From assembly GCA_047619065.1 (NCBI GenBank), contig JBLHNA010000014.1, positions 14,863 through 78,862 on the forward strand: a stretch of DNA of 64,000 nucleotides. The letters are read 5' to 3'. Each line of letters starts with the position of its first letter. Position 1 is the stretch's first letter. Shown one piece after another: positions 4,547 through 49,997 of this stretch. This DNA comes from Desulforhopalus sp. Lineage in GTDB: Bacteria; Desulfobacterota; Desulfobulbia; Desulfobulbales; Desulfocapsaceae. A program made the translations under genes and the position numbers. The notes beneath the pieces are model-generated. The model was not told where the DNA came from. It ran no database searches and was given only the letters and a program-made list of their open reading frames with translations.

Positions 4547-6211
<1,665 letters not shown>

Positions 6212-13321: not shown

Positions 13322-15211
13322 ATGTCCAAACAACCCACACCCGCAAAAGAGTTATCCATCTGGGAAGATGCCCAGAAAATGATTGAAAAAGCGAGAAGAG
13401 ACGGGGTGGAAACCGTTTGGGATCGCTTCGAACAGCAGCAACCGGGATGCAAATTCTGTGAGCTTGGATTGACCTGTAAGAATTGCAACATGGGGCCTTG
13501 TAGAATAAGTCTCAAGGAAAATGGCAAAATGCAACGAGGGGTTTGTGGGGCTGATGGGGATGTGATCGTGGCCCGAAATTTCGGTCGCTTTGTTGCCGGT
13601 GGATCAGCCGGACATTCCGACCATGGCCGGGATCTTATTGAAGTCCTTGAGGCCATTACAGAGGGCGAGGCTCCTGACTATAAAATCACAGATGAAAAGA
13701 AATTACGCAGTGTCTCGGTCGAGCTCGGAATTGCTGTGGAAGGTCGAGAAACAATAGCTATTGCCAAGGATTTGGTAGAAGCCTGTTTCTCAGATTTTGG
13801 CAGCCGAAAAAAAGAACTCGGATTTATCTGTCGCGTCCCCGAGGTACGTAAAGAGATCTGGCGAAAGTATAAGGTTATGCCCCGGGGAGTGGACCGGGAA
13901 ATTGCCGAAATGATGCATCGCACTCACATGGGTTGCGACAACGATGCAGTAAGTACCATGCTGCATGCGGCAAAAACATCTTTAGCTGATGGCTGGGGCG
14001 GATCCATGATAGGCACCGAACTCTCCGACATCATCTTTGGAGTCCCTACCCCATCAAAATCCCAGGTAAATCTTGGGGTAATTAAAGCTGATATGGTCAA
14101 TGTCCTTGTACATGGTCATAACCCAGTGGTTTCTGAGATGGTGCTTGCCGCCGCGCGAGATCCGGAAATGATAGCAAAAGCAAAAAAAGCTGGTGCGGAG
14201 GGTATCAATATTGGAGGCCTCTGCTGTACCGGCAATGAGCTCTTAGGCAGACAAGGCATTCCTATGGCCGGCAATCATCTGATGACTGAACTTGCAATCG
14301 TCACCGGTGCAGTAGAGGCCGTTGTGGTTGATTATCAGTGTATTATGCCTAGCATGGTTCAAGTCGCAGCCTGCTATCATACCAAATTTATTACTACTGC
14401 CGATAAAGCCCAGTTTACTGGGGCTACTCATATTTCTTTCAACACCAAAACTGCGGCAAAACAGGCAAGAGAAATAATAGAAATGGCAATAGAGGCATAT
14501 GGGGCACGTGATCAATCTCGAGTGGAGATTCCGGTTGCACCTGTAGACGTTGTCACAGGTTTTTCCAATGAAGCTTTGTTAGAGATGTTGGGCGGGAGTC
14601 TTGATCCGCTCATCGATGCCATAAAAGATGGCTCTATCCGTGGAGTTGTTGCAATCGTCGGATGTAACAATCCCAAATTCCAGCACGATTCACAAAATGT
14701 TGGTCTGGCTAAAGAATTGATTAAAAGGGATATCCTGGTTCTTGCAACCGGTTGCATTACGACGGCAGCAGGAAAGGCAGGACTTCTGGTTCCGGAGGGA
14801 AGTGAAATGGCCGGTCCAGGATTGAAAAAGATCTGTTCCGCTTTAAATATTCCTCCTGTTCTCCACTTTGGGTCCTGTGTCGATAATTCAAGAGTCATTC
14901 ATCTCTGTGGCTTAATAGCGAATGCACTGGGTGTTGATATCTCCGATCTGCCTGTTTGGGGTGCCTCCCCTGAATGGTATTCTGAAAAAGCAGTTGCAAT
15001 TGGCTTATACAGTGTGGCATCCGGAATCCCTGTGCATATAGGAACACCACCACAAATAACCGGTTCTAAACTCGTGACAGATATTGCTTTAAATGGCTTG
15101 GAAGATTTGTTTGGAGCTGCGTTTCTTGTTGAACCTGATTATGCAAAGGCCGCAGAAAAAATGGATGAAAGGATCATAGCGAAGCGACTTGCCCTCGGCC
15201 TTTCGGCCTAA
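13322..15211 (+). CDS. cooS: Anaerobic Ni-Fe-S carbon monoxide dehydrogenase catalytic subunit
   Basis: CKFCELGLTCKNCNMGPC, VLVHGHNP, GGLCCTGNE, IVGCNNP and FGSCVDNSR are the CooS cluster-ligand motifs. ATG at 13322 with a GAGGAA RBS (the track extends to a TTG at 13205). Confidence 0.95.
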   Translation: MSKQPTPAKELSIWEDAQKMIEKARRDGVETVWDRFEQQQPGCKFCELGLTCKNCNMGPCRISLKENGKMQRGVCGADGDVIVARNFGRFVAGGSAGHSDHGRDLIEVLEAITEGEAPDYKITDEKKLRSVSVELGIAVEGRETIAIAKDLVEACFSDFGSRKKELGFICRVPEVRKEIWRKYKVMPRGVDREIAEMMHRTHMGCDNDAVSTMLHAAKTSLADGWGGSMIGTELSDIIFGVPTPSKSQVNLGVIKADMVNVLVHGHNPVVSEMVLAAARDPEMIAKAKKAGAEGINIGGLCCTGNELLGRQGIPMAGNHLMTELAIVTGAVEAVVVDYQCIMPSMVQVAACYHTKFITTADKAQFTGATHISFNTKTAAKQAREIIEMAIEAYGARDQSRVEIPVAPVDVVTGFSNEALLEMLGGSLDPLIDAIKDGSIRGVVAIVGCNNPKFQHDSQNVGLAKELIKRDILVLATGCITTAAGKAGLLVPEGSEMAGPGLKKICSALNIPPVLHFGSCVDNSRVIHLCGLIANALGVDISDLPVWGASPEWYSEKAVAIGLYSVASGIPVHIGTPPQITGSKLVTDIALNGLEDLFGAAFLVEPDYAKAAEKMDERIIAKRLALGLSA

Positions 15212-23224: not shown

Positions 23225-25699
23225 ATGGGAGAGCATAAAATGGCGGCGGATCATGAAGTATTATCAATTACTTACCAGAATTCAGGCGAAGAAAACCAGG
23301 TGCTCCTCGCTGATCTAGAAGCTGCGCTGACTGGTTTTATGGAACATCTCGGGGTGCGCCCACTAATCGATCAGACCTTTTCAGAAGTAATCCTGACGGG
23401 TGACGGCAGGACTAAGATGGACAGACTACTTGCTGCTTGTGGGTATGGTGGTGATGCTCGTGGCTTTTTCGATGAATTGCTGGAACAGCTGGGTCGAGCG
23501 GATGGTACGGAAAAAATCATTATCAACAATATAGAGATGCCCCACCTGTTGCTCATGTCCATCCTTGAAGTCGCATTACCCGGCAATAGATTTGTCTCTA
23601 TCAAGACGACTGAGCATCTGGAAGAAGTCACCAATATAAAGATTAAGGAATCGGATCGGGCCGACATGCAGAAGGTAATCGATACATATCCTGTCCGGCT
23701 TTCCATGCATACGGTGCGGCAGATGCGGGTCTCCGGCAATGTCGCCTATCAGTATTTGCCATTTGTTGAAGAGCTTGGCACCATCGGCCACACCAATACC
23801 TGGATCGGTCAATTCCACCAGGGACTACTGGAACAGATGTATCAGAATCGGGTGATTTTTCTCCTCAACATGGGCTGCCCTGTTTATTGCCGGTTCTGCT
23901 TTCGAAAACATAAAGAGGAACGAAACCAGACGAATCCGACCACTGAGGCTGTTCGAGAGGCGGTGGAACATGTCATGAATTCTCCTTCCATTAAAGAGAT
24001 TATCATTACCGGTGGCGATCCTTTTATGAACATGGAAAATATGGCGAGTGCCATTGACGGCCTGATGGAGGTCGAGCATGTCCAGACCCTGCGCCTTGCT
24101 ACCCGCTCCATTGCCTACTATCCGCATTTGTTTCTTGGCGATGATGCCAGATTGCTCAATTATCTCAAGCGCAAGAATCTTGAGCTGCAGGAGCGTGGTA
24201 AGCGGATGGAGATTGCCACACACTTTATCCACCCGGATGAGATTTCGCCACAGTGCCTGATGATCATCTCCGAACTTGTGAAAAACGGTATTACGGTCTA
24301 TATACAGACTCCTTTTTTGAAAGACTGCAATGATGAAGGTCCAGAACTGGTAAGGCTGTTCAGCCTGCTTCGTGGTGCCGGAGCTGAGTTGCACTATATC
24401 TATATCCCCTGCAGTCCTATTCACGGTAATAGCGTGTACTGGTCGCCTATTGCCAAAGGTTTGCAGGTTGGCAGTTACTTGAGAGCACATCTTTCCGACC
24501 GGGTCGTACCGAGAATCTGCACGGCCACGCCCATTGGCAAGATGGACTGGAACTCAAGTGGCTGGGCCGTCGAACCAGTCGCAGAAAACGAGAACTTTAT
24601 CTGGATTCGCAGCCCCTATACCCCGGAGTATTTCAAGCAGTTTGCCCCCATTGCCAATGAACTGGAAAATATCCGGGTCAATGAAGAAGGAACCCTCGAC
24701 ATCCAATACATGGCGAAACTTGGCGATGATGCCCTGTTCCTCGGTTCTCGTCCACTGCGCCTTGGCGGGGGGATTTTTCAGCCGGAATCAACCGATGCGG
24801 TTATGGCGGCAATACGCTCCGGCGAAACGTTATCTCCTTCTTTGGTCGATACCAGATCGCCGATGATTTCCCGGGTGCATGAAACCCGGGTTGAGGTTGA
24901 TGCACACTGTACGGAAGAGGATCTCTATTATATTCGTGGAGATGAACGCATTACTGATGTGTTGATTGTCTCAGAAAAAGACGGTGTGGAATCGTTATTC
25001 CAGGTTGCAAAAATTATCCAGGTTCTGGAAGATATTCCTCATGTTAACGCTGTTCGTCTACGCAGTCTCATGTTTAATTATGAGCCCGAACGTTATACTG
25101 CTGAAGTAATCGATAAACTGGCAAGTCTTAATAAACTGAGCATTGTCAACCCGAAACGGCTCGAAATAGAGACCCAGTTTCTGGTGCCGGATGAGTTTCG
25201 GGCCGTACATGGCCGGCTGGCAGGATTGTTAAAAAACAAGGGTATAACTGTCTATAACAATACCCCGCTTCTTGGCAGGATTAACGATACTCCGGACATT
25301 ATCCAACTTCTCGCTTATAACTGCCGGGAGGCAGGGATTGAATTTCATCATCTTTATATTGCCGGCCTACCGATACAAAATAAGTGGAATGCCAGCAACC
25401 CGGTAGCACTCTATGATGTTGTGGATATTGCAACCCGGGTCCGCCGTGACGGCAGCGGTAGAGAGATACCCCGTTATATTATCCGCACGGTTGTGGGGGA
25501 AGTGGATTTTGGACTATCTTCCACCATTGAGGGTACAGATGAGGCGTTGTCGGTAAGACTGTTACCCTATGATCTCTCCTACTTCAAAGGATTATCGGTT
25601 AATTTTGAGTGGCCAGAGAACGTCAGGGAAGATGATGAGGGTAAACCGATCGTGCCAGTAATCGGGCTGCTGAAAACTACTGAATTCGCACTGTCATAA
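23225..25699 (+). CDS. Atypical 824-aa KamA-family radical SAM aminomutase-like protein. It has an N-terminal extension and an internal duplication; the second barrel lacks the Fe-S/SAM motif.
   Basis: CPVYCRFC at 23876-23899 (CxxxCxxC), followed by IITGGDPFM, HVQTLRLATRS, GITVYIQTPFLKDCNDEGPE..LHYIYIPCSPIHG. The second copy is ITDVLIVSEKDG, HVNAVRLRSLMF, GITVYNNTPLLGRINDTPD..FHHLYIAGLPIQN, with no Cys triad. Confidence 0.8.
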   Translation: MGEHKMAADHEVLSITYQNSGEENQVLLADLEAALTGFMEHLGVRPLIDQTFSEVILTGDGRTKMDRLLAACGYGGDARGFFDELLEQLGRADGTEKIIINNIEMPHLLLMSILEVALPGNRFVSIKTTEHLEEVTNIKIKESDRADMQKVIDTYPVRLSMHTVRQMRVSGNVAYQYLPFVEELGTIGHTNTWIGQFHQGLLEQMYQNRVIFLLNMGCPVYCRFCFRKHKEERNQTNPTTEAVREAVEHVMNSPSIKEIIITGGDPFMNMENMASAIDGLMEVEHVQTLRLATRSIAYYPHLFLGDDARLLNYLKRKNLELQERGKRMEIATHFIHPDEISPQCLMIISELVKNGITVYIQTPFLKDCNDEGPELVRLFSLLRGAGAELHYIYIPCSPIHGNSVYWSPIAKGLQVGSYLRAHLSDRVVPRICTATPIGKMDWNSSGWAVEPVAENENFIWIRSPYTPEYFKQFAPIANELENIRVNEEGTLDIQYMAKLGDDALFLGSRPLRLGGGIFQPESTDAVMAAIRSGETLSPSLVDTRSPMISRVHETRVEVDAHCTEEDLYYIRGDERITDVLIVSEKDGVESLFQVAKIIQVLEDIPHVNAVRLRSLMFNYEPERYTAEVIDKLASLNKLSIVNPKRLEIETQFLVPDEFRAVHGRLAGLLKNKGITVYNNTPLLGRINDTPDIIQLLAYNCREAGIEFHHLYIAGLPIQNKWNASNPVALYDVVDIATRVRRDGSGREIPRYIIRTVVGEVDFGLSSTIEGTDEALSVRLLPYDLSYFKGLSVNFEWPENVREDDEGKPIVPVIGLLKTTEFALS

Positions 25700-26406: not shown

Positions 26407-27246
26407 CTATACCTGCTTGTGCCAGATATTCATGCTTTCCAGGGAGCCTGAGATCTGAGTATTGTTGATCAGGGTACCAGCGAAAGTATAGCTATTTCTG
26501 GCAAAAGTGATATTCATCCCGAAGCTGGTCGCCCGGGCAATGGTGTAGCAGGTCTTGATACCTGTTTTCGCCACCAGATCTTCCAGCATGTGCAGCAGAA
26601 CATTGGCGAAACCAAAGCCGCGACAGTCAGGATGGGTTGCAAAGTCCGTCATCTCGGCATTTGCCATTTTTTTATCGACTTCCGCCGAGGAGAGCGCCAA
26701 TAATTTCTCATCTTGCCAGATTCCCGCGTAGACCACATTTTCGGCCATGGTCTGGCGCAGGTATTCTGGATCGTAGATGGGAAAAGGATAGCTTTCGAAA
26801 ACCTGCCGATAAAGCTCGCTCATCTGCGGGCAATCGAGTGGCGTTGCAACACGGCATTCAAGTCCCTGGCGGATTTCTTTTTGTTGTGGTGATGGTGCAG
26901 CTTCTTCCTGTGCTTTTTCAATAACAGTCAGGACCCGCTTGAAATCCGAGTCAATCATTCGTTCTGAATCATAATAGCGGGCCATGAAGAGGCCGTCTTC
27001 CTTGCCGTTATAAAAATTCGGGATAGCGGCTTCAAGCCGGTAACCGCCTTGCTTAAACTGCGCTTTGGCATATGCTGGGACCTTAGCGAATATTTTTGAA
27101 TAGCCGCATCGCAAGGCCAGTTCATGTATGTGGTCGATAATATCGGGCAAATCGGCTCTATCCAGTTTCATCAGGTAGACCCGATCATTTGCAGGACCGT
27201 GTTGTATTAAGGATTGACCGAAGGATTCGATGTGATCAGTTTCCAT
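26407..27246 (-). CDS. ablB: GNAT acetyltransferase, beta-lysine N6-acetyltransferase type
   Basis: 279 aa with a C-terminal GNAT fold ([21 protein letters not shown]). It overlaps the stop of the upstream lysine 2,3-aminomutase gene by 11 nt, the classical ablA-ablB arrangement. Confidence 0.7.
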
Positions 27247-28582
27247 TACGTCGTTCCATACGTGTATTATTTTTTGGCGTCAAACTGATCGTCTTGTCGC
27301 AGTCTGAAAGCAGCCTTTCTATCCCGGTTATTGCAGTTTCATCTGCATCGTCAAGATTAAGCTGCAGATGGCAGCTATCGCAATTGCGGTCACAGAATTT
27401 TGCTTTGTAACTATCCGGTTCCTTGTACGTTGTGATCACCCCTTCGTAATTTCGCAACACCACCTTGTTGGTTGACTGCGAGATTAAATAGTTGGGAGTG
27501 AGGGGGATCTTACCTCCGCCACCCGGCGCGTCGACCACATAGGTTGGCACAGAAAAGCCACTGGTGTGACCGATCAACGCTTCCATGATCTCAATTCCCT
27601 TACCGACAGGGGTGCGAAAATGTGAGAGTCCTTCGGAAAGATCACATTGGTATAGGTAATACGGACGCACGCGATTCTCAACAAGTTTATGGACCAAAGC
27701 TTTGATGATTCTCTGACAGTCGTTGACGCCGGCTAACAACACAGACTGGTTACCAAGGGGGATGCCTGCATCTGCCATTTTTTTGAGCGCCTGACGAGAA
27801 GAACTCGTCATCTCACGAGGATGGTTAAAATGAGTATTGACCCAGAGTGGATGGTGCTTTTTTAACATATTGACCAGGTTGTCAGTGATGCGATACGGCA
27901 GGACAACGGGCATCCGGGTCCCAATACGAATGACCTGAACATGCTCAATCTTCCTCAGTTCGGTGAGAAGCCAGTCAAGGTGGATATCACTCAGCATCAA
28001 AGGATCACCGCCGGAGAGCAATACGTCGCGCACTTCGGGGGTATTGCGTATATAGTCAATTCCTTTACTGATCTGATCGCGATTGGGGATTGAATCAACA
28101 TCGCCTACTTTGCGTTTGCGAGTACAATGGCGGCAATACATGGAGCACACATTGCTGACATGAAAAAGCACCCGATCGGGATAACGATGAGTGATTCCCG
28201 GTACCGGACTGTCCTTGTCTTCGGCCAGCGGATCAGACATGTCGCACTTTTCAATCTGCAACTCTTTAGAGTTAGGAAAAGCCTGACGGAAGACAGGGTC
28301 GTTGCGAAAGTCATTTCGGTCTATCAGGGAAAGATAATAGGGCGTGATCGACATGGGGAACTTTTTCATGGTCAAGGCGACCTTCCGTCTTTCAAGCGGT
28401 TCTAGTTCGATATTCAGCAGTTTTTCGAAGGTCTCAACATCGGTGATAGAATTTTTAAGCTGCCAGTGCCAGTTTTTCCACTGTGAGAGATCAACCTTTT
28501 CATCACTAAGATGATCGGCTATTTGTTGCTGATTGTTTGAAAAAATATTTATTGTCATAATAAGACAGATCCTTGCATGCAA
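27236..28582 (-). CDS. ablA: Lysine 2,3-aminomutase (radical SAM, KamA/AblA)
   Basis: [13 protein letters not shown] (CxxxCxxC), [28 protein letters not shown], and a C-terminal Cys-rich tail. GGGAGGGGG RBS before the ATG at 28582. Confidence 0.88.
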
Positions 28583-38880: not shown

Positions 38881-40243
38881 TAACAACAGGAGGTGATAGG
38901 GGGCAGTATAGAATCTCAGACAAAACAACACTAAGTTAGTAATAACAGAATATTCTTTTACAACTACTGGAAGTTCGAAAAACGACATTTTGCGACAATG
39001 ATCTAAAAAGAGATCTATTGGCAATTTAAATGATTGAGTCAATTCTGCATATTAAGCTTACTGACCAGGTTATCTCAGCAATTGATAGTTGAATGTAGCA
39101 TTGCCACAACGAGGCTAATCAATGTTGAATTACGCTCCAACGAAAGGTATTTCCTGATCAGGTATTCTCAGAAACTGAGGCTTCCGTTTAACCTTGCCAA
39201 ATCGAAGATAAGCAGTCTTGCCTTTCCCTTTAGTTTGAGATGTTTCCTGTCCATTTCAGAAATAACTCCTCATGAAGGTAAATTGAACAGATTTTAGTGC
39301 CTCAAACGGCAGTAGATACGTCTTTTGCGGTGTGACTTTACCTTACCAGAATTTCTTGCAAAACATTAAACTGCTCCTGCAGCACCTACCTTTCTGCTCG
39401 TTTTCGAATGATAGAGGGGGCACCTTTCTCCTCTTTTCTTTTGTTTCGTTGATACGGTAATACTGCCAGCCATACCGCCTCACCACTTACTTTTGTGCAG
39501 AAAACATGACGGTGAGCCGACCAATGACCCAGGATATGGAGCTATATTTTGGTGAAGATATAGAGTTGAAGACCTATCTGTCTGGCTGAGTCTTGACAGG
39601 AAACACCTCAAGTTGGAGCTATTGACTCGCTTCGTTACCTTCGACCTGGCAATGTCAAGCCCAACGCTCAGTTACCAAATTTACACTGTCTTTGGTAAGG
39701 TAAAGTCTGCAGTTGCTCCATTTTCCTACAGTTTTAATGAAATGTCGGGTTCTACCTTATCAATGATAAAGTTAACCTACATCCCTTCTTATTTAGTTAA
39801 GATTGCCATTCGCATAGTTTATAGTGTTATTCTTTTGATCGAGTACCATTCCGGGTGGTGCGGATGCCGTGATTAGCCCAAACTCTTTTCCTGTTCAAAT
39901 CTGTATTTGCAACAAAAAATGAGATTGGGCCTCCCTAACTCATGCATAAGAAAGGCATTGATAAAATTTGCTAGGCAATGTGATTTTCCACTCAGCTGAC
40001 AAGCCTGGTGAATTGGTTGTAACGGTTGATGCAAAAAACAACAAGGCAGCCCTGACCATCTGATGAAGGTAGACTCCGAATCTCTTTTTCAAGATCATTC
40101 GTGTCTTATATTTTCACTCGCCATGAAGATTTTAGATTCAAATGTTTGTTATTTGGATTGATATATTTATTTCACAAAGTATAATATAATCAATATGTTT
40201 TCACTGTAATAGCATTCTTTTCTTTTATAGGGTGACTCTACAC

Positions 40244-43200
40244 ATGAAAAACGTCCGCATTTTCATATCCTCTCCAGGCGATGTTGCCGAAGAACGTAAC
40301 CGAGCTAAGCAAGTCGTCGAACAGCTCCGCCGTCGTTACGCCGGTCGGCTAACCCTGGAATCTGTGTTGTGGGAAGATCTTCCCCTTCAGGCAGACATGT
40401 CCTTTCAAGAAGGCATCGATCTTGTCCTCTCCAACGAGCATGGACTCGACATCGCCCTGTTTATCCTCTGGTCACGTCTAGGAACTCCCTTGGGCGCGTT
40501 AATTACCAAAGAAGATGGCACTGAGTACCGTTCAGGTACAGAACGAGAGTTGGACCTGATTCTCCGTGCCAGAGCGCAGGCTAAGGAAAAAACCGGGGAA
40601 AACGACAATCATCCAGTTCGACCAGATATCCTCGTTTACCTCCGCGCCGACGACACCAGCTTTGATGAACGGTTGCGAGGGCATTCGACTGATGAAAAGG
40701 AAAAGCTGATCAATCAAAAGAAACTCGTAGAGCAATTTATTCGCGAAGAGTTTCATGATCCTGATAGCGGCAGCAACATCCGCGCCTATCACTCGTTTAA
40801 TATCCCCACCACCTTCTCTCAAAGGTTACGCGTCCATTTGCAGGAATTGCTCGACAAGATGGTAACTGATATCGAAGGCCAGCCGATTTGGGACATTGAT
40901 CAAAAAGGCCCTCCTTTCCGTGGTTTGGAGTCTTTTGATTACGAACATACTGACGTGTTTTTCGGCCGTGAGGACGAGATTCTTGAAGTTCGCCAAGCCC
41001 TTCGGCAGCAGGCACGAAACGGCTGCGCCTTTGTTCTCATTTCCGGGGCCAGCGGCAGTGGTAAATCCTCCCTCGCGCGTGCCGGAGTTCTTCCCACCCT
41101 CACCAGTTACGAAATCGATGAAAGTATTGTTGGTTGGCGCTATGCAGTGTTTAGCCCCGGACAGGTGGCGGGCGACGGTCTGATTCGTGGCCTTGCACTG
41201 TTTCTGATGAGCAACACGGCCTTGCCCGAACTTCGCAATGATGACCAGACGCTTGATGACCTCACCGAGGGATTAGCCAAGGATCCCGAGGTTACCTACA
41301 AACTTCGAATAAAACAGGCGCTGCAAAAAGCAGCAGAAGACAAGCTGGGAAGTATCCGTCTGGTACTTCTAGTTGATCAGTTTGAAGAACTGTTTACCGA
41401 TCCTCGCATCAAACCCGAGGAACGGGTACTCTTTGTTAATGCTCTCGATGCTCTGGCCCGAAGCGGCATGGTCTGGGTGATGGCCACGGTGCGCAGTGAT
41501 TTTTATGAACGTTGTGAACAACTTCCAGTGCTCATGGCCATGAAGGGAAGCGGTGGCCAGTTTTCCGTCCAGGTCCCTGGGGTTGATGCCCTGCGCCGCT
41601 TGATCACCGAGCCAGCCCGCCTGGCAGGTCTCAAGTATGAAGAATGTGATGGAAAAACCCTTGACAGTGTCATCCTGGATGACGCGTCACAGCATCTTGA
41701 GTTACTGCCACTGCTCGAATATCTGTTGCTGGAACTCTTCCGGGCGCGCACAAAGGATAACGTACTGACCTTTGTTGCATATGAAAACTTCGCGGCATAC
41801 ACCCAGGACGGCCTGAAACTCGGCGGCATCCGGGGCGCACTTGCTAAACGGGCTGAGGAGACTTGGCTCCAAGTCAATTCCAGTGAACCTGTTTTTGCCT
41901 CGGTTATGAAATCACTGATTACCATCGGTGGTGAGGAAGAAGAAAGCGCCGTCCGCCGTACCAGCCCCCTCGCCAATGTCACCGATACCCCAGAAAAATA
42001 TGCCTTTGTCCAAGCCTTTATAGAGGCTCGCCTCTTTGCCACGCAAGGTGAGTCACAGCAAAACGAAGAACAGCTGCAAAGCGATTCACATTTAGAAAGT
42101 GGTTCAAATGAAAAACAAGGGACGAATGCAACCGTTTCCGTTGCCCATGAAGCATTATTTCGAGTGTGGGGCAAAGCAGTCAACTGGATCGAAGCCAACA
42201 CAGAATTCCTCAGAGTGCGAGCCCAGGTCGCTCAACGCATGCAACAAGGAGGTGTCCTCCTGCCGGGTGACCCCCTTTTCGAACGAGCAAGAGCCCAGCT
42301 GACCCAACAACGCGAGAGTTTTGATGGGAAACAAGTTCTATTTATTGAAAAAGCGATTGCTAATGCCGAGCGGAAAAAAAAGCGCGCCAAAAAAATTCGA
42401 CACTCAGTCATCGCCGGGTTGCTCCTCCTGACACTTGCTGCGCTGGGAGGTATGGGGTTGGCGCGCCTTGAGTCAGGTAAATCTAAGAAAATCACTACTG
42501 AAACCCAACTTCGAGAAGCCAAGTTTACTTGGCTCCCACGCGCCAAAAACGCAACAATTAACAGGATATTTCCACAAAACGTTCTTTACGCCGGTCGTGC
42601 TCTCAGTTTCAGGGGCTATGGTTTTAATAAGCTTTCTCCAGAAGAACAAATTTCTATTGAGAAGCAATTCCCCAAACTTTTTGTCTTTGCTGACTATCGA
42701 GAATTGCATCAAGACCTCCGACAGCAGATAGAAGGGCACATAAAACCCTTGCTGCCGATATGGACAAGTCCAGTGACTAATCACCACAAGTCATCTGTTA
42801 ACAGCGTGGCCTTCAGCCCGGATGGCAACACCCTGGCAAGCGGAGGTGGGTACGAGGACAATATTATCAAGTTGTGGGATGTTGTCTCCGGCGATGTGCT
42901 GCACAGTTTAAGTGGACATACGGGATCTGTCAACAGCGTGGCCTTTAGCCCGGATGGCAAAACCCTGGCAAGCGGAGGTGGGTACAAGGACAATATTATC
43001 AAGCTGTGGGACGTGGCCTCCGGTAAAGAGATAGGCAGTTTAAGCGGACATATGAGATCTGTCAACAGCGTGGTCTTCAGCCCGGATGGCAAAACCGTGG
43101 CAAGTGGCAGTGGGGACAAAATCATCAAGTTGTGGGATATTGCCTCTGGCAAAGAAACAGGCAGTTTAAGCGGACATACGGGTTCTGTCGCCAGCGTAGC

Positions 43201-45946
43201 CTTCAGCCCGGATAGTAAAACCCTGGCAAGCGGAGATGAGTACAAGGACAATATTATCAAGCTGTGGGACGTGGCCTCCGGTAAAGAGATAGGCAGTTTA
43301 AGTGGACATACGGGATCTGTCAACAGCGTGGCCTTCAGCCCGGATGGCAACACCCTGGCAAGCGGAGGAGGGTACGAGGACAATATTATCAAGCTGTGGG
43401 ACGTGGCCTCCGGTAAAGAGATAGGCAGTTTAAGTGGACATACGGGATCTGTCAACAGCGTGGCCTTCAGTCCGGACGTTAAAACTCTGGTAAGCGGTAG
43501 TAGTGACAAAACCATCAAGCTGTGGGATTGGGCCTCCGGTAAAGAGATAGGCAGTTTAAGCGGACATGGGGGTACTGTCACCAGCCTGGCCTTTACCCTT
43601 GATGGTAAAACTTTGGTTAGCGGCAGTGATGACAAAACCATCAAGCTATGGGATCTGACTAGCGGCAAACAGAAAGGTATTTCAAACGGATATGAATCTA
43701 ATCTCATCAGTGTTACCTTCAGCCCTGATGGTAAAATCCTGGCAAGCGTGCGTGAAGACAAAACTATCAAGCTATGGGATGTGGCCAGCGGCAAAGAGAA
43801 AGGGACTTTAAACGGACATAGGTCTAATCTCACCAGCGTGGCCTTCAGCCCGGACGGTAAAACCCTGGCAAGCGGCAGTAGAGACAAAACCATCAAGCTA
43901 TGGGATCTGGCCAGCGGCAAAGAGCAAGGCAGTTTAAGCGGCCATGGGGATACTGTCACAAGCGTGGTCTTTAACCCGGATGGAAAAACCTTGGCTAGTG
44001 TCAGTTGGGACGATACTATCAAGCTATGGGATGTTGTCTCCGGCGATGTGCTGCACAGTTTAAGTGGACATATGGGAGATGTCCGCAGTGTGGCCTTCAG
44101 CCCGGATGGAAAAACCCTGGCAAGCGGCAGTGCTGACGATACCATCAAGCTATGGGATGTGGCCTCCGGTAAAGAGAAGGGTAGTTTAAACGGACATGTG
44201 GAAACTGTCACCAGCGTGGCTTTCAGCCCAGATGGTGAAACCCTGGCAAGCGGCAGTATAGACACTAGCATCAAGCTGTGGGATATGACCACAGGAAAAC
44301 AGAAAGGTAACTTAAGCGGACATGGGGATACTGTCACCAGCGTGGTCTTCAGCCTGGATGGAAAAATTCTGGCAAGTGGCAGTTTGGACAAGACAATCAA
44401 ACTGTGGGATCTGGCCAGCGGCAAAGAGCAAGGCAGTTTAAGCGGCCATGGGGATACTGTCACCAGCGTGGCCTTCAGCCCAGATGGTAAAACCCTGGCT
44501 AGCGGCAGTGAGGACAAGACAATCAAACTGTGGGATATTGCCACCACCAAAGAGCAAGGTAGTATAAGCGGACATGGTGGGGTGCGTTTTGTCCTCAGCG
44601 TCGCCTTCAGCCCAAATGGCGAGACCCTAGCAAGTGGCTGTTTGGACAATACCATCATGCTGTGGTGGGATTCGGATACCGGCAAAAATACTATCAGTTT
44701 AAGCGGAAATGTGGGTATTGTCACCAGCGTCACCTTTAGCCCAGATGGCAATATCCTAGCAAGCGGGAGTAGAGACAATACCATCAAACTGTGGGACGTG
44801 ACCTCCGGTAAAGAGATAGGCAGTTTAAGCAGACATACGGAACCTGTTAACAGCGTCGCCTTCAGCCCAAATGGCGAGACCCTAGCAAGTGGCAGTGAGG
44901 ACAATACCATCATGCTATGGGATTGGGGCTCAGGCAAAGAAACAGGCAGTTTAAGCGGCCATGCGGATTCTGTTCGTAGTGTGGCTTTCAGCCCGGATGG
45001 AAAAACCCTGGCAAGCGGCAGTATGGACAAAACCATCAAGCTATGGGATTGGGGCTCAGGCAAAGAAACAGGCAGTTTAAGCGGCCATGCGGATTCTGTT
45101 TGTAGTGTGGCTTTCAGCCCGGATGGAAAAACCCTGGCAAGCGGCAGTATGGACAAAACCATCAAGCTATGGGATTGGGCCGCTGGCAAAGAAACAGGAA
45201 GCTTAAGCGGACATACGGAACCTGTTAACAGTGTGGCTTTCAGCTCGGATGGCAAAACCCTGGCAAGCGGCAGTATGGACAAAACCATCAAGCTGTGGGA
45301 TTGGGCCTCTGGCAAAGAAACAGGAAGCTTAAGCGGACATACGAAAACTGTTAACAGCGTGGCCTTCAGCCCGGATGGAAAAACCCTGGCAAGCGGCAGT
45401 ACGGACACTAGCATCAAGCTATGGGATGTGGATGCAGACTATCACTTCAATTTGTTAGGATATTTTGTCAACGAATGGTACGAATTTGACCAAGAGACCG
45501 GCGATGTAATCCCTGCAACTCCTCTCAGTAATCTCTACGGGTCGAAAGATTTTGGATTTCTCAACGTGGGTGCTTGGACGCACGTTGGTGTCTTGCAAAG
45601 TGCCAAAACTCTTGAAGAACAAAACCGCCGTCTCTATAACCACTACCTCTATAGCAACGGGGCGCTTGGTGCCTTAGCCCTTCTTGACCAACCCATGGAC
45701 GAGAAACCCGATGCCACCCCACTCGCCGCCTACGCAGCCGCACTTTTTACCCAAGACGGCCAACAAGATCGAGCCCGCATTTTTTTCGACCGCTTGCGGT
45801 TCACGAAATGGGGCCGGCAAAACCTTGCCTCAAAGGAAATGATCGATCGATTGAATATAGACGATGCCACGACAATATCATTGAAACAGTTGCTGCTTGT
45901 GGCAAATCAAACTAATGGACCATTGGAATCAGGAGCTGAAAAATAG
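40244..45946 (+). CDS. Giant (1901 aa) STAND-type protein. Domain order: DUF4062/TIR-like N-terminus, P-loop NTPase, single TM helix, 21 WD40 blades, ~170-aa unknown C-terminal domain.
   Basis: VRIFISSPGDVAEERNRAKQVVEQL (DUF4062-type start). PPFRGLESFDYEHTDVFFGREDEI followed by Walker A GASGSGKS (41045-41068) and Walker B-like LVLLVDQFEELF. KKKRAKKIRHS-VIAGLLLLTLAALGGMGLA (TM, 42407-42463). 21 repeats of the (S/N)VAFSPDGKTLASGS.DKTIKLWD type. Confidence 0.9.
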   Translation: MKNVRIFISSPGDVAEERNRAKQVVEQLRRRYAGRLTLESVLWEDLPLQADMSFQEGIDLVLSNEHGLDIALFILWSRLGTPLGALITKEDGTEYRSGTERELDLILRARAQAKEKTGENDNHPVRPDILVYLRADDTSFDERLRGHSTDEKEKLINQKKLVEQFIREEFHDPDSGSNIRAYHSFNIPTTFSQRLRVHLQELLDKMVTDIEGQPIWDIDQKGPPFRGLESFDYEHTDVFFGREDEILEVRQALRQQARNGCAFVLISGASGSGKSSLARAGVLPTLTSYEIDESIVGWRYAVFSPGQVAGDGLIRGLALFLMSNTALPELRNDDQTLDDLTEGLAKDPEVTYKLRIKQALQKAAEDKLGSIRLVLLVDQFEELFTDPRIKPEERVLFVNALDALARSGMVWVMATVRSDFYERCEQLPVLMAMKGSGGQFSVQVPGVDALRRLITEPARLAGLKYEECDGKTLDSVILDDASQHLELLPLLEYLLLELFRARTKDNVLTFVAYENFAAYTQDGLKLGGIRGALAKRAEETWLQVNSSEPVFASVMKSLITIGGEEEESAVRRTSPLANVTDTPEKYAFVQAFIEARLFATQGESQQNEEQLQSDSHLESGSNEKQGTNATVSVAHEALFRVWGKAVNWIEANTEFLRVRAQVAQRMQQGGVLLPGDPLFERARAQLTQQRESFDGKQVLFIEKAIANAERKKKRAKKIRHSVIAGLLLLTLAALGGMGLARLESGKSKKITTETQLREAKFTWLPRAKNATINRIFPQNVLYAGRALSFRGYGFNKLSPEEQISIEKQFPKLFVFADYRELHQDLRQQIEGHIKPLLPIWTSPVTNHHKSSVNSVAFSPDGNTLASGGGYEDNIIKLWDVVSGDVLHSLSGHTGSVNSVAFSPDGKTLASGGGYKDNIIKLWDVASGKEIGSLSGHMRSVNSVVFSPDGKTVASGSGDKIIKLWDIASGKETGSLSGHTGSVASVAFSPDSKTLASGDEYKDNIIKLWDVASGKEIGSLSGHTGSVNSVAFSPDGNTLASGGGYEDNIIKLWDVASGKEIGSLSGHTGSVNSVAFSPDVKTLVSGSSDKTIKLWDWASGKEIGSLSGHGGTVTSLAFTLDGKTLVSGSDDKTIKLWDLTSGKQKGISNGYESNLISVTFSPDGKILASVREDKTIKLWDVASGKEKGTLNGHRSNLTSVAFSPDGKTLASGSRDKTIKLWDLASGKEQGSLSGHGDTVTSVVFNPDGKTLASVSWDDTIKLWDVVSGDVLHSLSGHMGDVRSVAFSPDGKTLASGSADDTIKLWDVASGKEKGSLNGHVETVTSVAFSPDGETLASGSIDTSIKLWDMTTGKQKGNLSGHGDTVTSVVFSLDGKILASGSLDKTIKLWDLASGKEQGSLSGHGDTVTSVAFSPDGKTLASGSEDKTIKLWDIATTKEQGSISGHGGVRFVLSVAFSPNGETLASGCLDNTIMLWWDSDTGKNTISLSGNVGIVTSVTFSPDGNILASGSRDNTIKLWDVTSGKEIGSLSRHTEPVNSVAFSPNGETLASGSEDNTIMLWDWGSGKETGSLSGHADSVRSVAFSPDGKTLASGSMDKTIKLWDWGSGKETGSLSGHADSVCSVAFSPDGKTLASGSMDKTIKLWDWAAGKETGSLSGHTEPVNSVAFSSDGKTLASGSMDKTIKLWDWASGKETGSLSGHTKTVNSVAFSPDGKTLASGSTDTSIKLWDVDADYHFNLLGYFVNEWYEFDQETGDVIPATPLSNLYGSKDFGFLNVGAWTHVGVLQSAKTLEEQNRRLYNHYLYSNGALGALALLDQPMDEKPDATPLAAYAAALFTQDGQQDRARIFFDRLRFTKWGRQNLASKEMIDRLNIDDATTISLKQLLLVANQTNGPLESGAEK
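42781..45432 (+). repeat. Array of 21 tandem WD40-encoding units (126 nt; four units of 132 nt), several near-identical at the DNA level
   Basis: Units 44915-45040 and 45041-45166 differ at one base (44975 C vs 45101 T). ~80 nt at 43261-43340 is repeated exactly at an offset of +132. A ~45-nt stretch, GGGATGTTGTCTCCGGCGATGTGCTGCACAGTTTAAGTGGACATA, occurs at ~42876 and ~44026. Confidence 0.95.
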
Positions 45947-46111
45947 AGGTAGTTATCAGGAGATTGGATACATGGTGACAGGTATGCTTGATTAAAGCAG
46001 AAGAGTGGGGGATAGTTTTTTATAACGAATCGTTCCGTCGGCTAAACAGGAGAACTAAAGGTTAATATTTCCACATAAAAGGTATGATATATTCCACAAT
46101 ACTGAGATTTT

Positions 46112-46330
46112 ATGATGTCTATTATTGTTATCAAGGGCGAGAGCATGATCCTGACCTGGAGCGTGGATAGCACCGCTCGCTTCTGGGATATCCAATGGGC
46201 TATGGGTGACACTAACGATCCTAAATTTGTCCATGACCTCCACCGTGAAAAACTTGTCGGCGCTCCACCACCAACGCCCTGGGATACCCTTAAGTCTCTG
46301 CTATGGCCTTCAAGCACGCAGAGTAGATAG
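46112..46330 (+). pseudogene. Orphan, diverged WD40-blade fragment in the gap between gene 1 and gene 2
   Basis: The 72-aa ORF contains ILTWSVDSTARFWDI (D-x-T-x-R-x-WD blade end). It has no RBS and no propeller context. Confidence 0.35.
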
Positions 46331-46368
46331 TTACAGGCAAACAGATACCGTCAAAACAGGTGAATCAG

Positions 46369-48339
46369 ATGAACGTTTTTATAGTCCGCCCCTTTGGCGA
46401 AAAAGAGGGGATCAACTTTGACGAGGTCGAAAATCTGCTGATTCAGCCAGCTCTAAAGAGCATTGATGTCCATGGCAGCACGACCGGAGTAATCGTCAAG
46501 GCTGGCAATATTCGCCATGACATGTTCCAATTGCTGCTTGTGGCAGATCTGGTTATTGCCGATATCTCGATCCACAACGCCAATGTCTTTTACGAACTTG
46601 GCATTCGCCATGCCCTCCGTGATAAACGGACGATTATGATCCGCTGCGGCAGCAATGAAGTTCCCTTCGATCTGAAAACTGATCGCTACCTTTCATACGA
46701 CAAAAACGACCCGGCCGAGTCTCTTCCTGTACTGATCCAATCATTACAAGATACGATTGCCTCTCAGGATAAGGACAGCCCAGTGTTTCAGTTACTGCCT
46801 GATCTTGAGGCGCAGGATCAGAGCCGGTTTATAGTGGTGCCCAAGGATTTCCAGGAAGAAGTTGATCTCGCTCGGATACATCAGTGGCAGGGAGATTTGA
46901 AGCTGCTGGCAGAGGAAGTGCAAGGTCTCTTTTGGGCAAGAGAGGGACTCCGCATTATAGGTAGAGTTCAATTCAAATTACAGGATTATGAGGGAGGTCG
47001 TGATACCTGGGAGCAGGTTCGCAAGGTGTACCCGGATGTCCTTGAAGCCAACCTGCTTCTCGGCACCATATATCAACGCCTAGGTGATCTGGCCTGCTCT
47101 GATCAGGCAATAGAGAGGGTTCTCTCTCAAAAGTGCAGTTCAACGAGTGACCGGGCCGAAGCATATGCCCTGCGTGGCCGAAATAGTAAAATACGCTGGC
47201 AGGCCGATTGGTTAAACAGTCCTGAACCGGATGTACCCCAAAATGCCCTGCGCTCCCCCCATCTGCTGCAGGCCTTTACAGCCTACGAGCAAGGCTACCT
47301 TCAGGATCTTAACCATTATTATTCAGGAATTAATGCACTGGCCCTACTGGTGGTTCTCACCGACCTTGCCGCCCGTTTTCCTGAGGTCTGGGTGACCTGT
47401 TTTGACGAGGACGATGAGGCTATTCAACGGCTCAAATACCTGGGTAAGCGGTGTACTGAATTGGCAAGCACCGTCACTCTTTCTCTCAAAGCGGAGAAGG
47501 ATCGCTTAACGCGTTCGGAGCAGGAAGATGTCTGGTTCGATATCACCTGTGCTGATCTTCGTTGTTTGACACTGACGCGCCCCGAACGGGTGGCGCAAGC
47601 CTACCGCACTGCCTTTAATAAAATTGACCCCTTCTCATATGAGTCTGCAGCCCAGCAGTTGCAAATGTTAGAAACTCTAGGTGTCCGAAAGGACAATGTG
47701 CAGGCGGCAGTCCAGGAGATAACTGTCCTGCGGCCGACAGCCGAGCGAAAGGTAAAAAAGGAGCCCCATGTGTTGCTTTTTACAGGGCATATGATTGATC
47801 AGGATGACAGGGAGCAACCGAGGTTCCCTGCTGCAAAGGAATCAGCAGTGCGGCAAGAGATTGAAAAACATGTTGCAGCCGAACTGTCACGGGTTGAGGG
47901 AGAGCTTATCGGGGTGACAGGCTGTGCCTGCGGAGGGGATATCTTGTTTCATGAAGTTTGTGCCGATCTGGGGATTATAACCAAAATATATCTCGCTCTG
48001 CCCAAGGATCAGTACATTGTTACCTCTGTGCAACATGGCGGACCACAGTGGGTAGATCGGTTCAATCAGCTTAACCAGCGTCTTGATTCTCGTATACTCT
48101 CAACTACAAAAGAACTGCCACGGTGGCTTCAAGAGAAAGACAAATACTCCTTCTGGCAACGCAACAATCTCTGGACATTTTATAATGGTTTGGCTCTTGG
48201 CGAGGCAAATATGTCTTTGATTGCCCTTTGGGATGGCCGGGGGGGCGATAGCCCGGGCGGCACTGAAGACATGGTAAAACACGCCAGATCCCATGGGGCC
48301 AAGGTTATTATCATTGACATAAACACGATATGTTCATGA
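46369..48339 (+). CDS. Three-module protein: N-terminal TIR-like/flavodoxin-like domain (DUF4071-type, from memory), central TPR-like helical region, C-terminal SLOG/LOG-like Rossmannoid domain
   Basis: MNVFIVRPFGEKEGINFDEV...ADLVIADISIHNANVFYELGIRHAL. The helical middle has LLLGTIYQRLGD and YYSGINALALL. The C-terminus has VLLFTGHMID...GVTGCACGGD (47920-47940) and SPGGTEDM (48250-48270), resembling the LOG PGGxGTxxE motif. AGGTGA RBS before the ATG at 46369. Confidence 0.75.
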   Translation: MNVFIVRPFGEKEGINFDEVENLLIQPALKSIDVHGSTTGVIVKAGNIRHDMFQLLLVADLVIADISIHNANVFYELGIRHALRDKRTIMIRCGSNEVPFDLKTDRYLSYDKNDPAESLPVLIQSLQDTIASQDKDSPVFQLLPDLEAQDQSRFIVVPKDFQEEVDLARIHQWQGDLKLLAEEVQGLFWAREGLRIIGRVQFKLQDYEGGRDTWEQVRKVYPDVLEANLLLGTIYQRLGDLACSDQAIERVLSQKCSSTSDRAEAYALRGRNSKIRWQADWLNSPEPDVPQNALRSPHLLQAFTAYEQGYLQDLNHYYSGINALALLVVLTDLAARFPEVWVTCFDEDDEAIQRLKYLGKRCTELASTVTLSLKAEKDRLTRSEQEDVWFDITCADLRCLTLTRPERVAQAYRTAFNKIDPFSYESAAQQLQMLETLGVRKDNVQAAVQEITVLRPTAERKVKKEPHVLLFTGHMIDQDDREQPRFPAAKESAVRQEIEKHVAAELSRVEGELIGVTGCACGGDILFHEVCADLGIITKIYLALPKDQYIVTSVQHGGPQWVDRFNQLNQRLDSRILSTTKELPRWLQEKDKYSFWQRNNLWTFYNGLALGEANMSLIALWDGRGGDSPGGTEDMVKHARSHGAKVIIIDINTICS

Positions 48340-48388
48340 GATTAATGACTACAGACACCATTTAATTTATAGCAAAGGGAAAATCGAC

Positions 48389-49540
48389 ATGACACTTGCA
48401 GAAAAAATCAAAGCACCTGGCAGCAAGAAAATTCTGGCCCTTGACGGTGGTGGTATTCGCGGAATCATGACTGTTGAAATTCTGGCAGGTATTGAAGCAA
48501 TTTTGCGAAAATCCCTGGACAATCAGGCTCTTGTTCTCGCTGATTATTTCGATTTCATCGCCGGTACAAGTACGGGTGCAATAATCGCTACTTGCCTTTC
48601 CCTTGGCATGAGCAGTTCAGAAGTGAGTGATTTCTACGAGAAAAGCGGCGAAGCGATGTTTGATAAGGCATCGCTGTTAAAGCGCTTCCGTTACAGTTAT
48701 GAAGATAAAAAGCTTGCAGCAAAACTTCGGGAAGTCATTAATGGCGGATCAGACAAGCCAGATATCACTCTTGGTACCGATAGGCTGAAAACTCTGCTGC
48801 TGATGGTAATGCGAAATGCCTCCACAGATTCCCCATGGCCCATTTCAAACAACCCCGGTGCAAAATACAATCAACTTGAAAGAAGAGAGCAATCTACAGG
48901 TGATTGCAATCTCGATATCCCACTCTGGCAACTGGTGCGTGCCAGCACAGCTGCACCTGTGTATTTTCCTCCAGAAGTCGTAAAGGTCGGTGGAAAGGAA
49001 TTTGTCTTTGTCGATGGCGGCATTACCACCTATAACAACCCCGCTTTTCAGGCGTTTCTCATGGCAACGGTTAAACCCTACAACCTTAACTGGTCGACCG
49101 GCGAAGATCAATTTCTGGTCGTTTCAGTCGGCACCGGCACCAGTCCCGATGCCAATGCAGACCTCGATTCTTCAGATATGAACCTGCTTTATAATGCCGG
49201 CTCCATACCTTCGGCGCTCATGTTTGCCGCACTTAACGAACAGGATTTTCTCTGTCGGGTTTTCGGTAAATGTCTGGCAGGAGACAAACTTGATAATGAG
49301 GTTGCTACAATGATCGGGGCGGAGGGAGCAGGTCCGATAAACCCGAAACTCTTTACTTATTTACGCTACAACGCCGAGCTAACAGTAAAGGGACTTACTG
49401 ATCTCGGTCTCCCAGAAATCAACCCCAAAGACGTCCAGAAACTTGATTCAGTGAAACATATGAAGAAACTGCAGCTTATCGGGCAGAAGGTGGTGGAAAA
49501 AAAGATGCACTTAGAGCACTTTGCCGCATTTACCGACTAA
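48389..49540 (+). CDS. Patatin-like phospholipase
   Basis: Oxyanion DGGGIRG (48443-48463), nucleophile elbow GTSTG (48563-48577), catalytic Asp in FVDGG (Asp 49013-49015). Starts 49 nt downstream of the previous gene. Confidence 0.92.
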   Translation: MTLAEKIKAPGSKKILALDGGGIRGIMTVEILAGIEAILRKSLDNQALVLADYFDFIAGTSTGAIIATCLSLGMSSSEVSDFYEKSGEAMFDKASLLKRFRYSYEDKKLAAKLREVINGGSDKPDITLGTDRLKTLLLMVMRNASTDSPWPISNNPGAKYNQLERREQSTGDCNLDIPLWQLVRASTAAPVYFPPEVVKVGGKEFVFVDGGITTYNNPAFQAFLMATVKPYNLNWSTGEDQFLVVSVGTGTSPDANADLDSSDMNLLYNAGSIPSALMFAALNEQDFLCRVFGKCLAGDKLDNEVATMIGAEGAGPINPKLFTYLRYNAELTVKGLTDLGLPEINPKDVQKLDSVKHMKKLQLIGQKVVEKKMHLEHFAAFTD

Positions 49541-49997
49541 CAGGCCGCGTATGATTTTCGGTTGCATATTTTCTACAAGGCCAAGAAAAACTGCATGCGG
49601 TGTAACCATGAAGTGTATCGGGTCTACTGGGTGTTTTCCATTTACTCAATAATAGACCTCGAAATTTTTTTACTCTTAGCCGAGAAACACACTCGTGACC
49701 AAGCACCGTTACAATTATTGCTATACCCGGTGCTTCTACCAGGAAGAATCACCTGAGGAGATTTCAACTATTCTCGAATTTCTAGGTGACTGATACTTTC
49801 TTACTTTACATCGATTGCCTATTGAGCTTGCCAGGACAAACCTCTTTACCAAAAAAAAATCTCCAAAACGTAATAGATCACTGCATTCAGGACGTTCTGC
49901 TTTGCCAAATTCCTAACAATAAAACATGAGTTTGAAAGATAAGACTATCCATGAGAGGTTACAGGATTACACGACATCACGGTCTAAGAGACTAGAA

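Follow-up and report, generated by a model that had tools for sequence, protein, structure and literature searches.

A 21-unit WD40 array as the probable ligand sensor of a bacterial nSTAND1 NTPase, with units evolving in concert and variation centered on the top face

We analyzed a stretch of 64,000 nucleotides (nt) from Desulforhopalus sp. (assembly GCA_047619065.1, contig JBLHNA010000014.1, positions 14,863 to 78,862 of the forward strand), referred to below as the window. A gene at 40244-45946 was found to encode a protein in which 21 tandem WD40 units follow an NTPase of the STAND class. We propose, with a probability that we put at roughly 0.7, that this array is the ligand-sensing domain of the NTPase, that its blades evolve in concert, and that its top face is under diversifying selection. 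The array, noted in an initial annotation of the window, is not free-standing. It is the sensor part of a gene of 1900 amino acids (aa) with a notable architecture: a DUF4062-like domain, an nSTAND1 NTPase, one predicted membrane helix and a linker come before the 21 WD40 units, and a rare tail of 172 aa comes after them. The parts of this gene, in window coordinates, are listed here together with an antisense open reading frame (ORF) that overlaps the array.

40244..45946, forward strand: STAND-WD40 gene, 1900 aa from its ATG, taken from the ORF list
40247..40906, forward strand: N-terminal DUF4062-like predicted effector domain, with a sub-threshold Pfam match and an invariant SGTERE
40913..42244, forward strand: nSTAND1 NTPase module (Pfam PF20703, E=8e-80, aa 228-671)
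42407..42463, forward strand: predicted transmembrane helix VIAGLLLLTLAALGGMGLA, with the basic cluster ERKKKRAKKIRHS before it (Kyte-Doolittle)
42464..42748, forward strand: linker from helix to array (…FPQNVLYAGRALSFRGYGF…PLLPIW), common to the relatives L001, P0002, P0246 and P0257
42749..45427, forward strand: 21 WD40 units, aa 840-1732 (Pfam WD40, Tandem Repeats Finder, unit alignment)
44924..45175, forward strand: units U18 and U19, the youngest duplicate pair, with a one-base difference (Arg to Cys at position R1)
45428..45943, forward strand: C-terminal tail of 172 aa (GYFVNEWYEF…LLDQPMD), rare in a scan of representative proteins
42781..45417, reverse strand: antisense ORF of 878 aa, a by-product of the repeat periodicity

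The ORF opens earlier than the gene as given, with a GTG at 40232 that would yield 1904 aa if used. The 1900-aa product from 40244 is the form recorded in the protein collection, on a contig of 113.5 kb and as a singleton cluster, and orthologues likewise begin at MKNVRIFISSPGD. The nSTAND1 module scores 270 bits against a profile cut-off of 27.1, and its Walker A motif reads GASGSGKSS. Among 2404 homologues with this module, the sensor partner is TPR, WD40, FGE-sulfatase, Sel1, ankyrin or dCache, and FGE-sulfatase forms are the most frequent close homologues of the N-terminal module. Joining of one N-terminal module to alternative sensors is the STAND pattern of swappable sensors. The tail has no match in Pfam or NCBIfam, and only 15 clusters that carry it came up when 1.84 billion representative proteins were scanned in full; a WD40 array always directly precedes it. 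In one tail-bearing relative (P0246) an FGE-sulfatase domain follows the tail. A genome scan gave a sole orthologue (L001), from an uncultured Desulfobulbaceae metagenome-assembled genome (MAG), which is 76% identical in the N-terminal part and has the same linker and tail.

The presence of 21 in-frame WD40 units, as read in the initial annotation, was borne out by a Pfam WD40 match in 21 stretches (E=8e-261) and by Tandem Repeats Finder, which reported a period of 126 nt and 20.7 copies. The unit alignment shows the GH…WD signature and the D-H-S/T-W tetrad, with His, Ser, Asp and Trp residues that hardly vary. Among solved structures the closest is 2YMU, a 14-blade repetitive WD40 protein of Nostoc punctiforme (E=3e-248), and homology was also found to the solved propellers PkwA and Apaf-1. 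By analogy with 2YMU, in which 14 blades make two propellers, three propellers of seven blades each are a plausible arrangement for 21 units. Four units (U1, U2, U4 and U5) are indeed 132 nt long (44 aa) and share a 2-codon insertion (GGGYxDN / DEYKDN). The remaining ones are not all 126 nt, as had been stated, since U15 measures 135 nt (45 aa) next to 16 units of 126 nt (42 aa). The description of the units as near-identical in DNA is accurate for U18 and U19 (99%) but not for the array overall, in which two units are on average 74% identical in DNA (range 52-99%) and 68% identical in protein.

Exact repeats had been reported at distances of 132 and about 1150 nt. Both were recovered within a wider set, 42 to 94 nt in length: 94 nt at distance 132, 78 and 61 nt at 126, 63 nt at 258, 59 nt at 504, 46 nt at 1152 and 42 nt at 1269. 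Likewise, the two adjacent segments 44915-45040 and 45041-45166 differ by a single base as claimed, a C/T difference at 44975 that changes Arg to Cys at R1. Identity between units declines gradually as the lag grows, from 0.80 for adjacent units to about 0.75, with no higher-order period, and a multi-unit super-repeat was rejected on these grounds. The array starts at 42749. Its earlier starting point, 42781, is the boundary of the spurious antisense ORF (42781-45417), which we rejected as a gene because its translation is itself a low-complexity 42-aa repeat and thus an artefact of the periodicity. The antisense frame of this ORF contains one stop, and the other two contain 81 and 34.

Variation among the units is concentrated rather than even, in agreement with the initial annotation, and entropy is highest in a few columns. 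It peaks at D-1, the residue before the conserved Asp in the b-c turn (3.2 bits), at three residues after GH (2.2-2.6 bits) and at R1, which follows the conserved Val in strand a (2.2 bits); secondary peaks lie just after WD and in strand d. Protein identity among the units is 20% at six top-face columns versus 76% outside them. Entropy peaks at the same positions in four relatives (L002/P0002, P0257, P0006 and P0009). The variable sites were placed on the blade by homology to solved WD40 proteins and by published positional knowledge. Those on the top face match the WDSP hotspots R1-2, R1 and D-1, which PMC5587647 credits to Wu et al. 2012, and correspond exactly to four codons, 7/9 and 25/27, of the Podospora HNWD repeats, with a spacing of 18 residues in both. 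In those fungal repeats, positive selection was found at codons 7/9 and 25/27, which flank the conserved codons 8 and 26 (PMC1805685).

Three variable patches had been assigned to the top face. Two of them stand, namely the patch after GH, including R1, and the one around the Asp of the b-c turn. The third, after LWD, consists of the c-d loop and strand d, which in the standard WD40 topology form the bottom or outer side. Its ratio of non-synonymous to synonymous change (dN/dS) is near 1 here, and in L001 it is invariant (VASGTEKATL). This patch follows unit subfamilies, not selection.

In both the window gene and L001, the nearest DNA neighbor of every internal unit lies in its own gene, and cross-gene pairing is found only for the first units, at 78%. 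The units of L002 show the same within-gene grouping. This within-gene pairing, from which the edge unit is left out, is classical concerted evolution with the edge repeat escaping. The units are in addition mosaic. Over-long runs of identical polymorphic sites are shared by 18 of 190 unit pairs (permutation p<0.01), compared with 1.9 expected, and the nearest relative changes from one third of a unit to another; in U02, for example, the first third is identical to U11, and the remainder is nearest to U04 and U05. Grouping by gene instead of by position (the first unit excepted), together with the mosaic structure, indicates concerted evolution, and the unequal recombination or gene conversion suggested in the initial annotation is supported by both the within-gene neighbors and the mosaic pairs. 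No second WD40 locus was found within the window as an exchange partner, and exchange was seen within the gene only. Scaffold codons are synonymously diverged, the proportion of synonymous differences (pS) being about 0.45. Where conversion homogenizes the scaffold while the hot sites escape, selection against homogenization is required.

Targeted mutagenesis could in principle yield hot codons as well, if a diversity-generating retroelement (DGR) or a similar system wrote them. FGE-sulfatase sensors are common among the close homologues of the N-terminal module, and such sensors are DGR targets in other organisms (PMC10907252, PMC8195603). However, no reverse transcriptase or DGR component was found within the surrounding 30 kb, the variation extends across 21 paralogous units and not over one pair of variable and template repeats, and recombination accounts better for the synonymous differences and the mosaic blocks. 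We consider a retroelement origin of the hot codons to be very remote.

To quantify selection, site classes were fixed beforehand, pairwise dN/dS was calculated by the NG86 method, and changes were counted by parsimony on trees built by the unweighted pair group method with arithmetic mean (UPGMA). At the three WDSP hotspot columns, dN/dS in the window was 2.7 by NG86 and 1.6-2.5 on the tree (p=0.008), and the tree value for L001 was 4.2-13 (p=3e-10). The six top-face columns gave 2.2 by NG86 and 1.4-1.8 on the tree (p=0.016) in the window, and 3.2-7.5 on the tree (p=3e-9) in L001. For the c-d patch the corresponding values were 1.1, 1.0-1.3 and 0.04-0.08, and for the scaffold they were 0.15, 0.2 and 0.33-0.35. 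Of the 189 non-synonymous changes, 57 fell in the four Podospora-equivalent columns, as did 8 of the 119 synonymous changes (Fisher p=2e-7), which gives a ratio of non-synonymous to synonymous changes of 57:8 there versus 132:111 elsewhere. The share of these columns in the non-synonymous changes was 30% versus 9.5% expected (binomial p=2e-15). The sole difference between U18 and U19 is non-synonymous and falls at the top-face position R1. The diversifying selection proposed earlier is supported by these counts at few columns of the ligand face, to a modest degree in the window and strongly in L001, and it appears from the codon comparisons to be limited to those positions.

A relaxation of constraint would account for part of this pattern: tolerant loop residues, for example those of a signaling interaction platform, would simply drift on a recently amplified scaffold. 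In its favor, top-face dN/dS in the window is only 1.4-2.5 and concerns few codons, the c-d patch is neutral with a dN/dS of about 1, the units are fairly old (dS about 0.65), and periplasmic WD40 arrays on Ser/Thr kinases have been read as ordinary signal inputs (PMC11032199). Drift, however, predicts an omega of about 1, whereas L001 gives 3-13 at preselected sites. Moreover, other loops are strongly conserved (the a-b loop, PDGK), the same four positions recur in several relatives and in fungal receptors, and the hot sites escape a conversion process by which the scaffold is homogenized. Relaxed constraint is thus an unlikely explanation, and diversifying selection on the top face is preferred.

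Comparable arrays are present in relatives. That of L001 has at least 20 units, with a DNA identity of 85% and a protein identity of 0.78-0.80, and is broken at 14526-14592 by a scaffold gap of 67 N together with a frame change. L002/P0002 has four units, of which the three internal ones reach 92% DNA identity and vary at the top-face positions named above. Counts among tail-bearing relatives, which are comparisons between species, are 4, 7 (P0246), at least 14 (P0257), at least 20 (L001) and 21 (the window). Several entries of the tail family are fragments that start inside an array.

Such fragments raise the question of assembly, as short-read collapse, expansion or strain chimeras could have produced the count and order of the units and some of the mosaic. 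The interrupted L001 array and the many database relatives that begin within an array are what this explanation expects, and extra copies could collapse at U18 and U19, which are 99% identical over 252 nt. Logan assemblies contain three neighboring proteins but not this one, a weak point given that GroEL is likewise absent from them. On the other side, the reading frame is intact across 21 units and 5.7 kb in a contig of 113.5 kb. Differences of 10-30% separate most units, no exact repeat exceeds 94 nt, and paired 150-nt reads can resolve most joins. Long arrays occur in relatives too (at least 14 units in P0257, at least 20 in L001), and per-site variability is independent of unit order. An artefact on this scale is therefore improbable, somewhat more so than relaxed constraint, and we retain the view of a genuine array that evolves in concert. 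Unit number and order, above all at U18/U19, may nevertheless be affected by short-read assembly. Because such arrays break or collapse in short-read assemblies, repeat counts taken from MAGs cannot be trusted without long reads.

The N-terminal part of the protein offers candidates for a switch and an effector. nSTAND1 is treated as an NTPase of conflict systems and was defined in such systems (PMC8195603, PMC10907252). As for the domain in front of it, a match to DUF4062 was obtained for each of 20 aligned family members, with a best E value of 1.3e-6. An AlphaFold model of the N-terminal domain based on the alignment has a predicted local distance difference test (pLDDT) score of 86 and a three-layer alpha/beta fold. 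No PDB sequence matched a profile made from the N-terminal alignment. DUF4062 has been reported to be a TIR-like NADase in Avs2, in other defense systems and in human TEP1, and the combination DUF4062-NACHT-WD40 occurs in human TEP1 and NWD1 (bioRxiv 10.64898/2026.09.04.749371, 10.64898/2026.05.01.722283). The Glu of SGTERE is invariant across the family alignment and is, by motif reading, a candidate counterpart of the published catalytic Glu (E108, E98 or E97). PADLOC matched none of its Avs or bNACHT models to the protein and gave only a weak PDC-S60 candidate (E=4.5e-6, aa 6-87).

A mechanism in keeping with this architecture can be proposed. Unequal recombination and gene conversion would keep the scaffold homogeneous and alter the number and order of units, and diversifying selection would keep the post-GH loop, R1 and the Asp-flanking b-c positions different between blades. 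The outcome would be a large and quickly re-assortable set of binding surfaces. Binding of a ligand to the hypervariable propeller faces would cause the NTPase module to oligomerize, and the oligomerized NTPase would switch on the N-terminal effector, probably to deplete NAD+, as its predicted chemistry suggests. A role in ligand or invader recognition, which the initial annotation had proposed, would follow from the STAND architecture, and the biological function would presumably be defense or non-self recognition.

The membrane helix adds a further possibility. It covers aa 726-744 and is, with 19 residues, the sole segment of the protein with a Kyte-Doolittle mean above 2 (2.2). One such hydrophobic segment lies at the equivalent place in 58 of 68 homologues, so that it is the property and not the sequence that is conserved. 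Its flanks in the homologues carry net charges of +4.2 (N side) and +1.1 (C side), a positive-inside bias. In one homologue (P0012) a dCache/PDC sensor (PF22673, E=5e-30) is placed between this helix and a second one. Domains of the dCache/PDC type are extracytoplasmic. The conserved helix, the charge bias and the placement of dCache in P0012 argue for a periplasmic array, in which case effector and NTPase would be cytoplasmic, and by the same signs the sensors across this subfamily would be extracytoplasmic. As a whole, the picture of a transmembrane STAND receptor with a periplasmic 21-blade surface, one helix, and a cytoplasmic NTPase and TIR-like NADase is tentative, and we hold it with a good deal less confidence than the sensor role itself.

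Were it correct, the ligand would be extracytoplasmic, for instance a toxin, a phage particle or tail protein at the envelope, or a surface molecule by which a neighboring cell is recognized as kin or non-self. An outward array is incompatible with autoinhibition by fold-back as in Apaf-1, and activation would then occur by ligand-induced clustering across the membrane. The proposed topology recalls Toll-like receptors and departs from the model for Apaf-1 and Avs, in which a cytoplasmic protein inhibits itself by folding back. It would extend STAND signaling to extracytoplasmic ligands and would be new for a STAND receptor. It would also mean that, within one NTPase family, outward sensors are diversified by DGRs in some members and by repeat shuffling in others.

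The gene is the first of a conflict-type block of three genes (40000-49600), the other two being the following.

46360..48339, forward strand: protein with a weak TIR-like N-terminus, TPR-S (Pfam TPR-S E=4e-13) and an unassigned C-terminal domain of about 200 aa
48389..49540, forward strand: patatin-like phospholipase (Pfam Patatin E=2e-25), CapV-like below threshold

PADLOC assigned a TIR effector to the former (E=1e-5) and a phospholipase effector to the latter (E=1e-43), for which the NCBIfam model CBASS_lipase gave 117 bits against a cut-off of 200. The block has a G+C content of 46-54%, compared with 38-42% in the flanks, which encode ordinary metabolism. Horizontal acquisition of the block as an island would fit this contrast. 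Upstream of the gene, a stretch of about 1.35 kb (38881-40231) contains no ORF of 90 aa or more and is AT-rich close to the start codon. An Rfam scan of the whole window found no RNA family.

As to the host, the GroEL encoded at 4547-6181 on the reverse strand shares 98% identity with its counterpart in a Desulforhopalus sp. MAG, 93% with that of Desulfopila sp. IMCC35008 and 89% with that of Desulfofustis sp. PB-SRB1, and these identities indicate a Desulfocapsaceae-like sulfate reducer. A cable-bacterium or multicellular host was rejected in view of the 98% identity to the Desulforhopalus sp. MAG. Elsewhere in the window, two radical SAM genes of the KamA family lie close together (23225-25699 and 27236-28582). 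One has an unusually long form of 824 aa and scores well below equivalog cut-offs, and the other is a clear lysine 2,3-aminomutase (AblA). A KamA-like gene is also found downstream of the L001 orthologue. In L002, 4702-7989 encodes another architecture that resembles a conflict system.

Several observations weigh against the reading of the array as a diversifying sensor of a defense-type STAND protein. At the N-terminus, PF13271 (DUF4062) falls short of its threshold with 18 bits against 24.7 (E=3e-3), and a Foldseek search of the N-terminal model against the PDB returned generic flavodoxin-like matches only, with TM scores below 0.4 and no TIR or NADase. With regard to selection, top-face dN/dS in the window is only modestly above 1 and the strong signal comes from the L001 orthologue. 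The estimates are noisy because dS between units is high (about 0.65), and they were obtained by simple counting on a UPGMA tree, whose assumption is violated by recombination, and not from likelihood site models. A single-sequence AlphaFold2 model of the WD region and tail had a pLDDT of 32 and was unusable for site mapping. The topology is drawn from hydrophobicity, charge bias and the architecture of one homologue. Close relatives, including conspecific sequences, were found neither in a metagenome scan nor in a contig-index look-up of the exact product. Finally, the conflict-type neighbors are not conserved beside the orthologues in L001 and L002; we therefore treat them as co-residents of an island, and the context as suggestive.

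The protein shares parts with several known systems, among them, in the array itself, the repetitive prokaryotic WD40 proteins (Hu et al. 2017, PMC5587647; Npun_R6612, 2YMU; WRAP-T designs 7BID-7BIG). They have the blade consensus GH..V.SVAFSPDG.TLASGS.D.TIKLWD in common with it. In them, multiple propellers arise from newly amplified units, with diverse hotspots and a conserved remainder (PMC5587647). The present array differs in having 21 units, not 14, and in being joined to DUF4062-nSTAND1 and a membrane helix. For highly repetitive, or high-internal-conservation (HIC), repeat sensors of NLR-like proteins, internal identity has been required to be at least 0.7 (Hu 2017) or about 85% (Dyrka 2014). 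With a mean protein identity of 0.68 and 0.72 over the best eight contiguous units, the array is borderline by the former standard, which it reaches locally, and lies below 85%.

With respect to its effector, the protein has the same order of DUF4062-like domain, STAND NTPase and WD40 as the DUF4062 (NIR) STANDs, which include Avs2 variants and human TEP1, NWD1 and NWD2 (bioRxiv 10.64898/2026.09.04.749371, 10.64898/2026.05.01.722283), and, by motif reading, it shares with them a conserved Glu after a Ser/Thr-rich turn (SGTERE). It differs from them by an nSTAND1 in place of a NACHT or Avs2-type NTPase and by the membrane helix; the Pfam match is below threshold and the NADase is predicted. A parallel to the predicted topology is offered by Ser/Thr kinases of Planctomycetota and Myxobacteria (PMC11032199), single-pass proteins with a cytoplasmic signaling domain and predicted-periplasmic WD40 arrays of up to 19 units. 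These kinases use the same alternative sensors (WD40, TPR and FGE-sulfatase), with a kinase where the present protein has a STAND NTPase and a predicted NADase.

The same NTPase, PF20703, is found with DGR-diversified FGE/C-type-lectin sensors (Kaur et al. 2021, PMC8195603; Doré et al. 2024, PMC10907252), and the logic of effector, switch and hypervariable sensor is the same. By contrast, the sensor here is WD40, and its diversity arises by repeat recombination and selection instead of error-prone reverse transcription. The family thus permits a side-by-side comparison of lectin sensors diversified by DGRs with repeat shuffling.

The combination of repetitive WD40 on a STAND protein, concerted evolution and a hypervariable top face is already documented in fungi, in the HNWD/NWD proteins of Podospora anserina (HET-D, HET-E and HET-R; PMC1805685, PMC4986451, PMC12222747). 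These are likewise STAND proteins with an N-terminal effector or death domain and an array of 42-aa WD40 units. The likeness extends to units that evolve in concert, a variable number of units, four shared positions of hypervariability with signs of positive selection, and arrays that are hard for short-read assembly. The differences are the following: 1) the fungal proteins combine NACHT with HET, and the present one, which is bacterial, combines nSTAND1 with a DUF4062-like domain; 2) a membrane helix lies here between NTPase and repeats, and repeat-induced point mutation is not part of the system; and 3) internal protein identity is 68% here versus about 85% in Podospora, with exchange seen here within the gene only. 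On this comparison, the diversification strategy of fungal NLR-like allorecognition, in which a concertedly evolving WD40 scaffold bears hypervariable top-face residues, is also at work in a sulfate-reducing deltaproteobacterial lineage (Desulfocapsaceae-like), where it acts on a different NTPase, nSTAND1, with a DUF4062-like effector.

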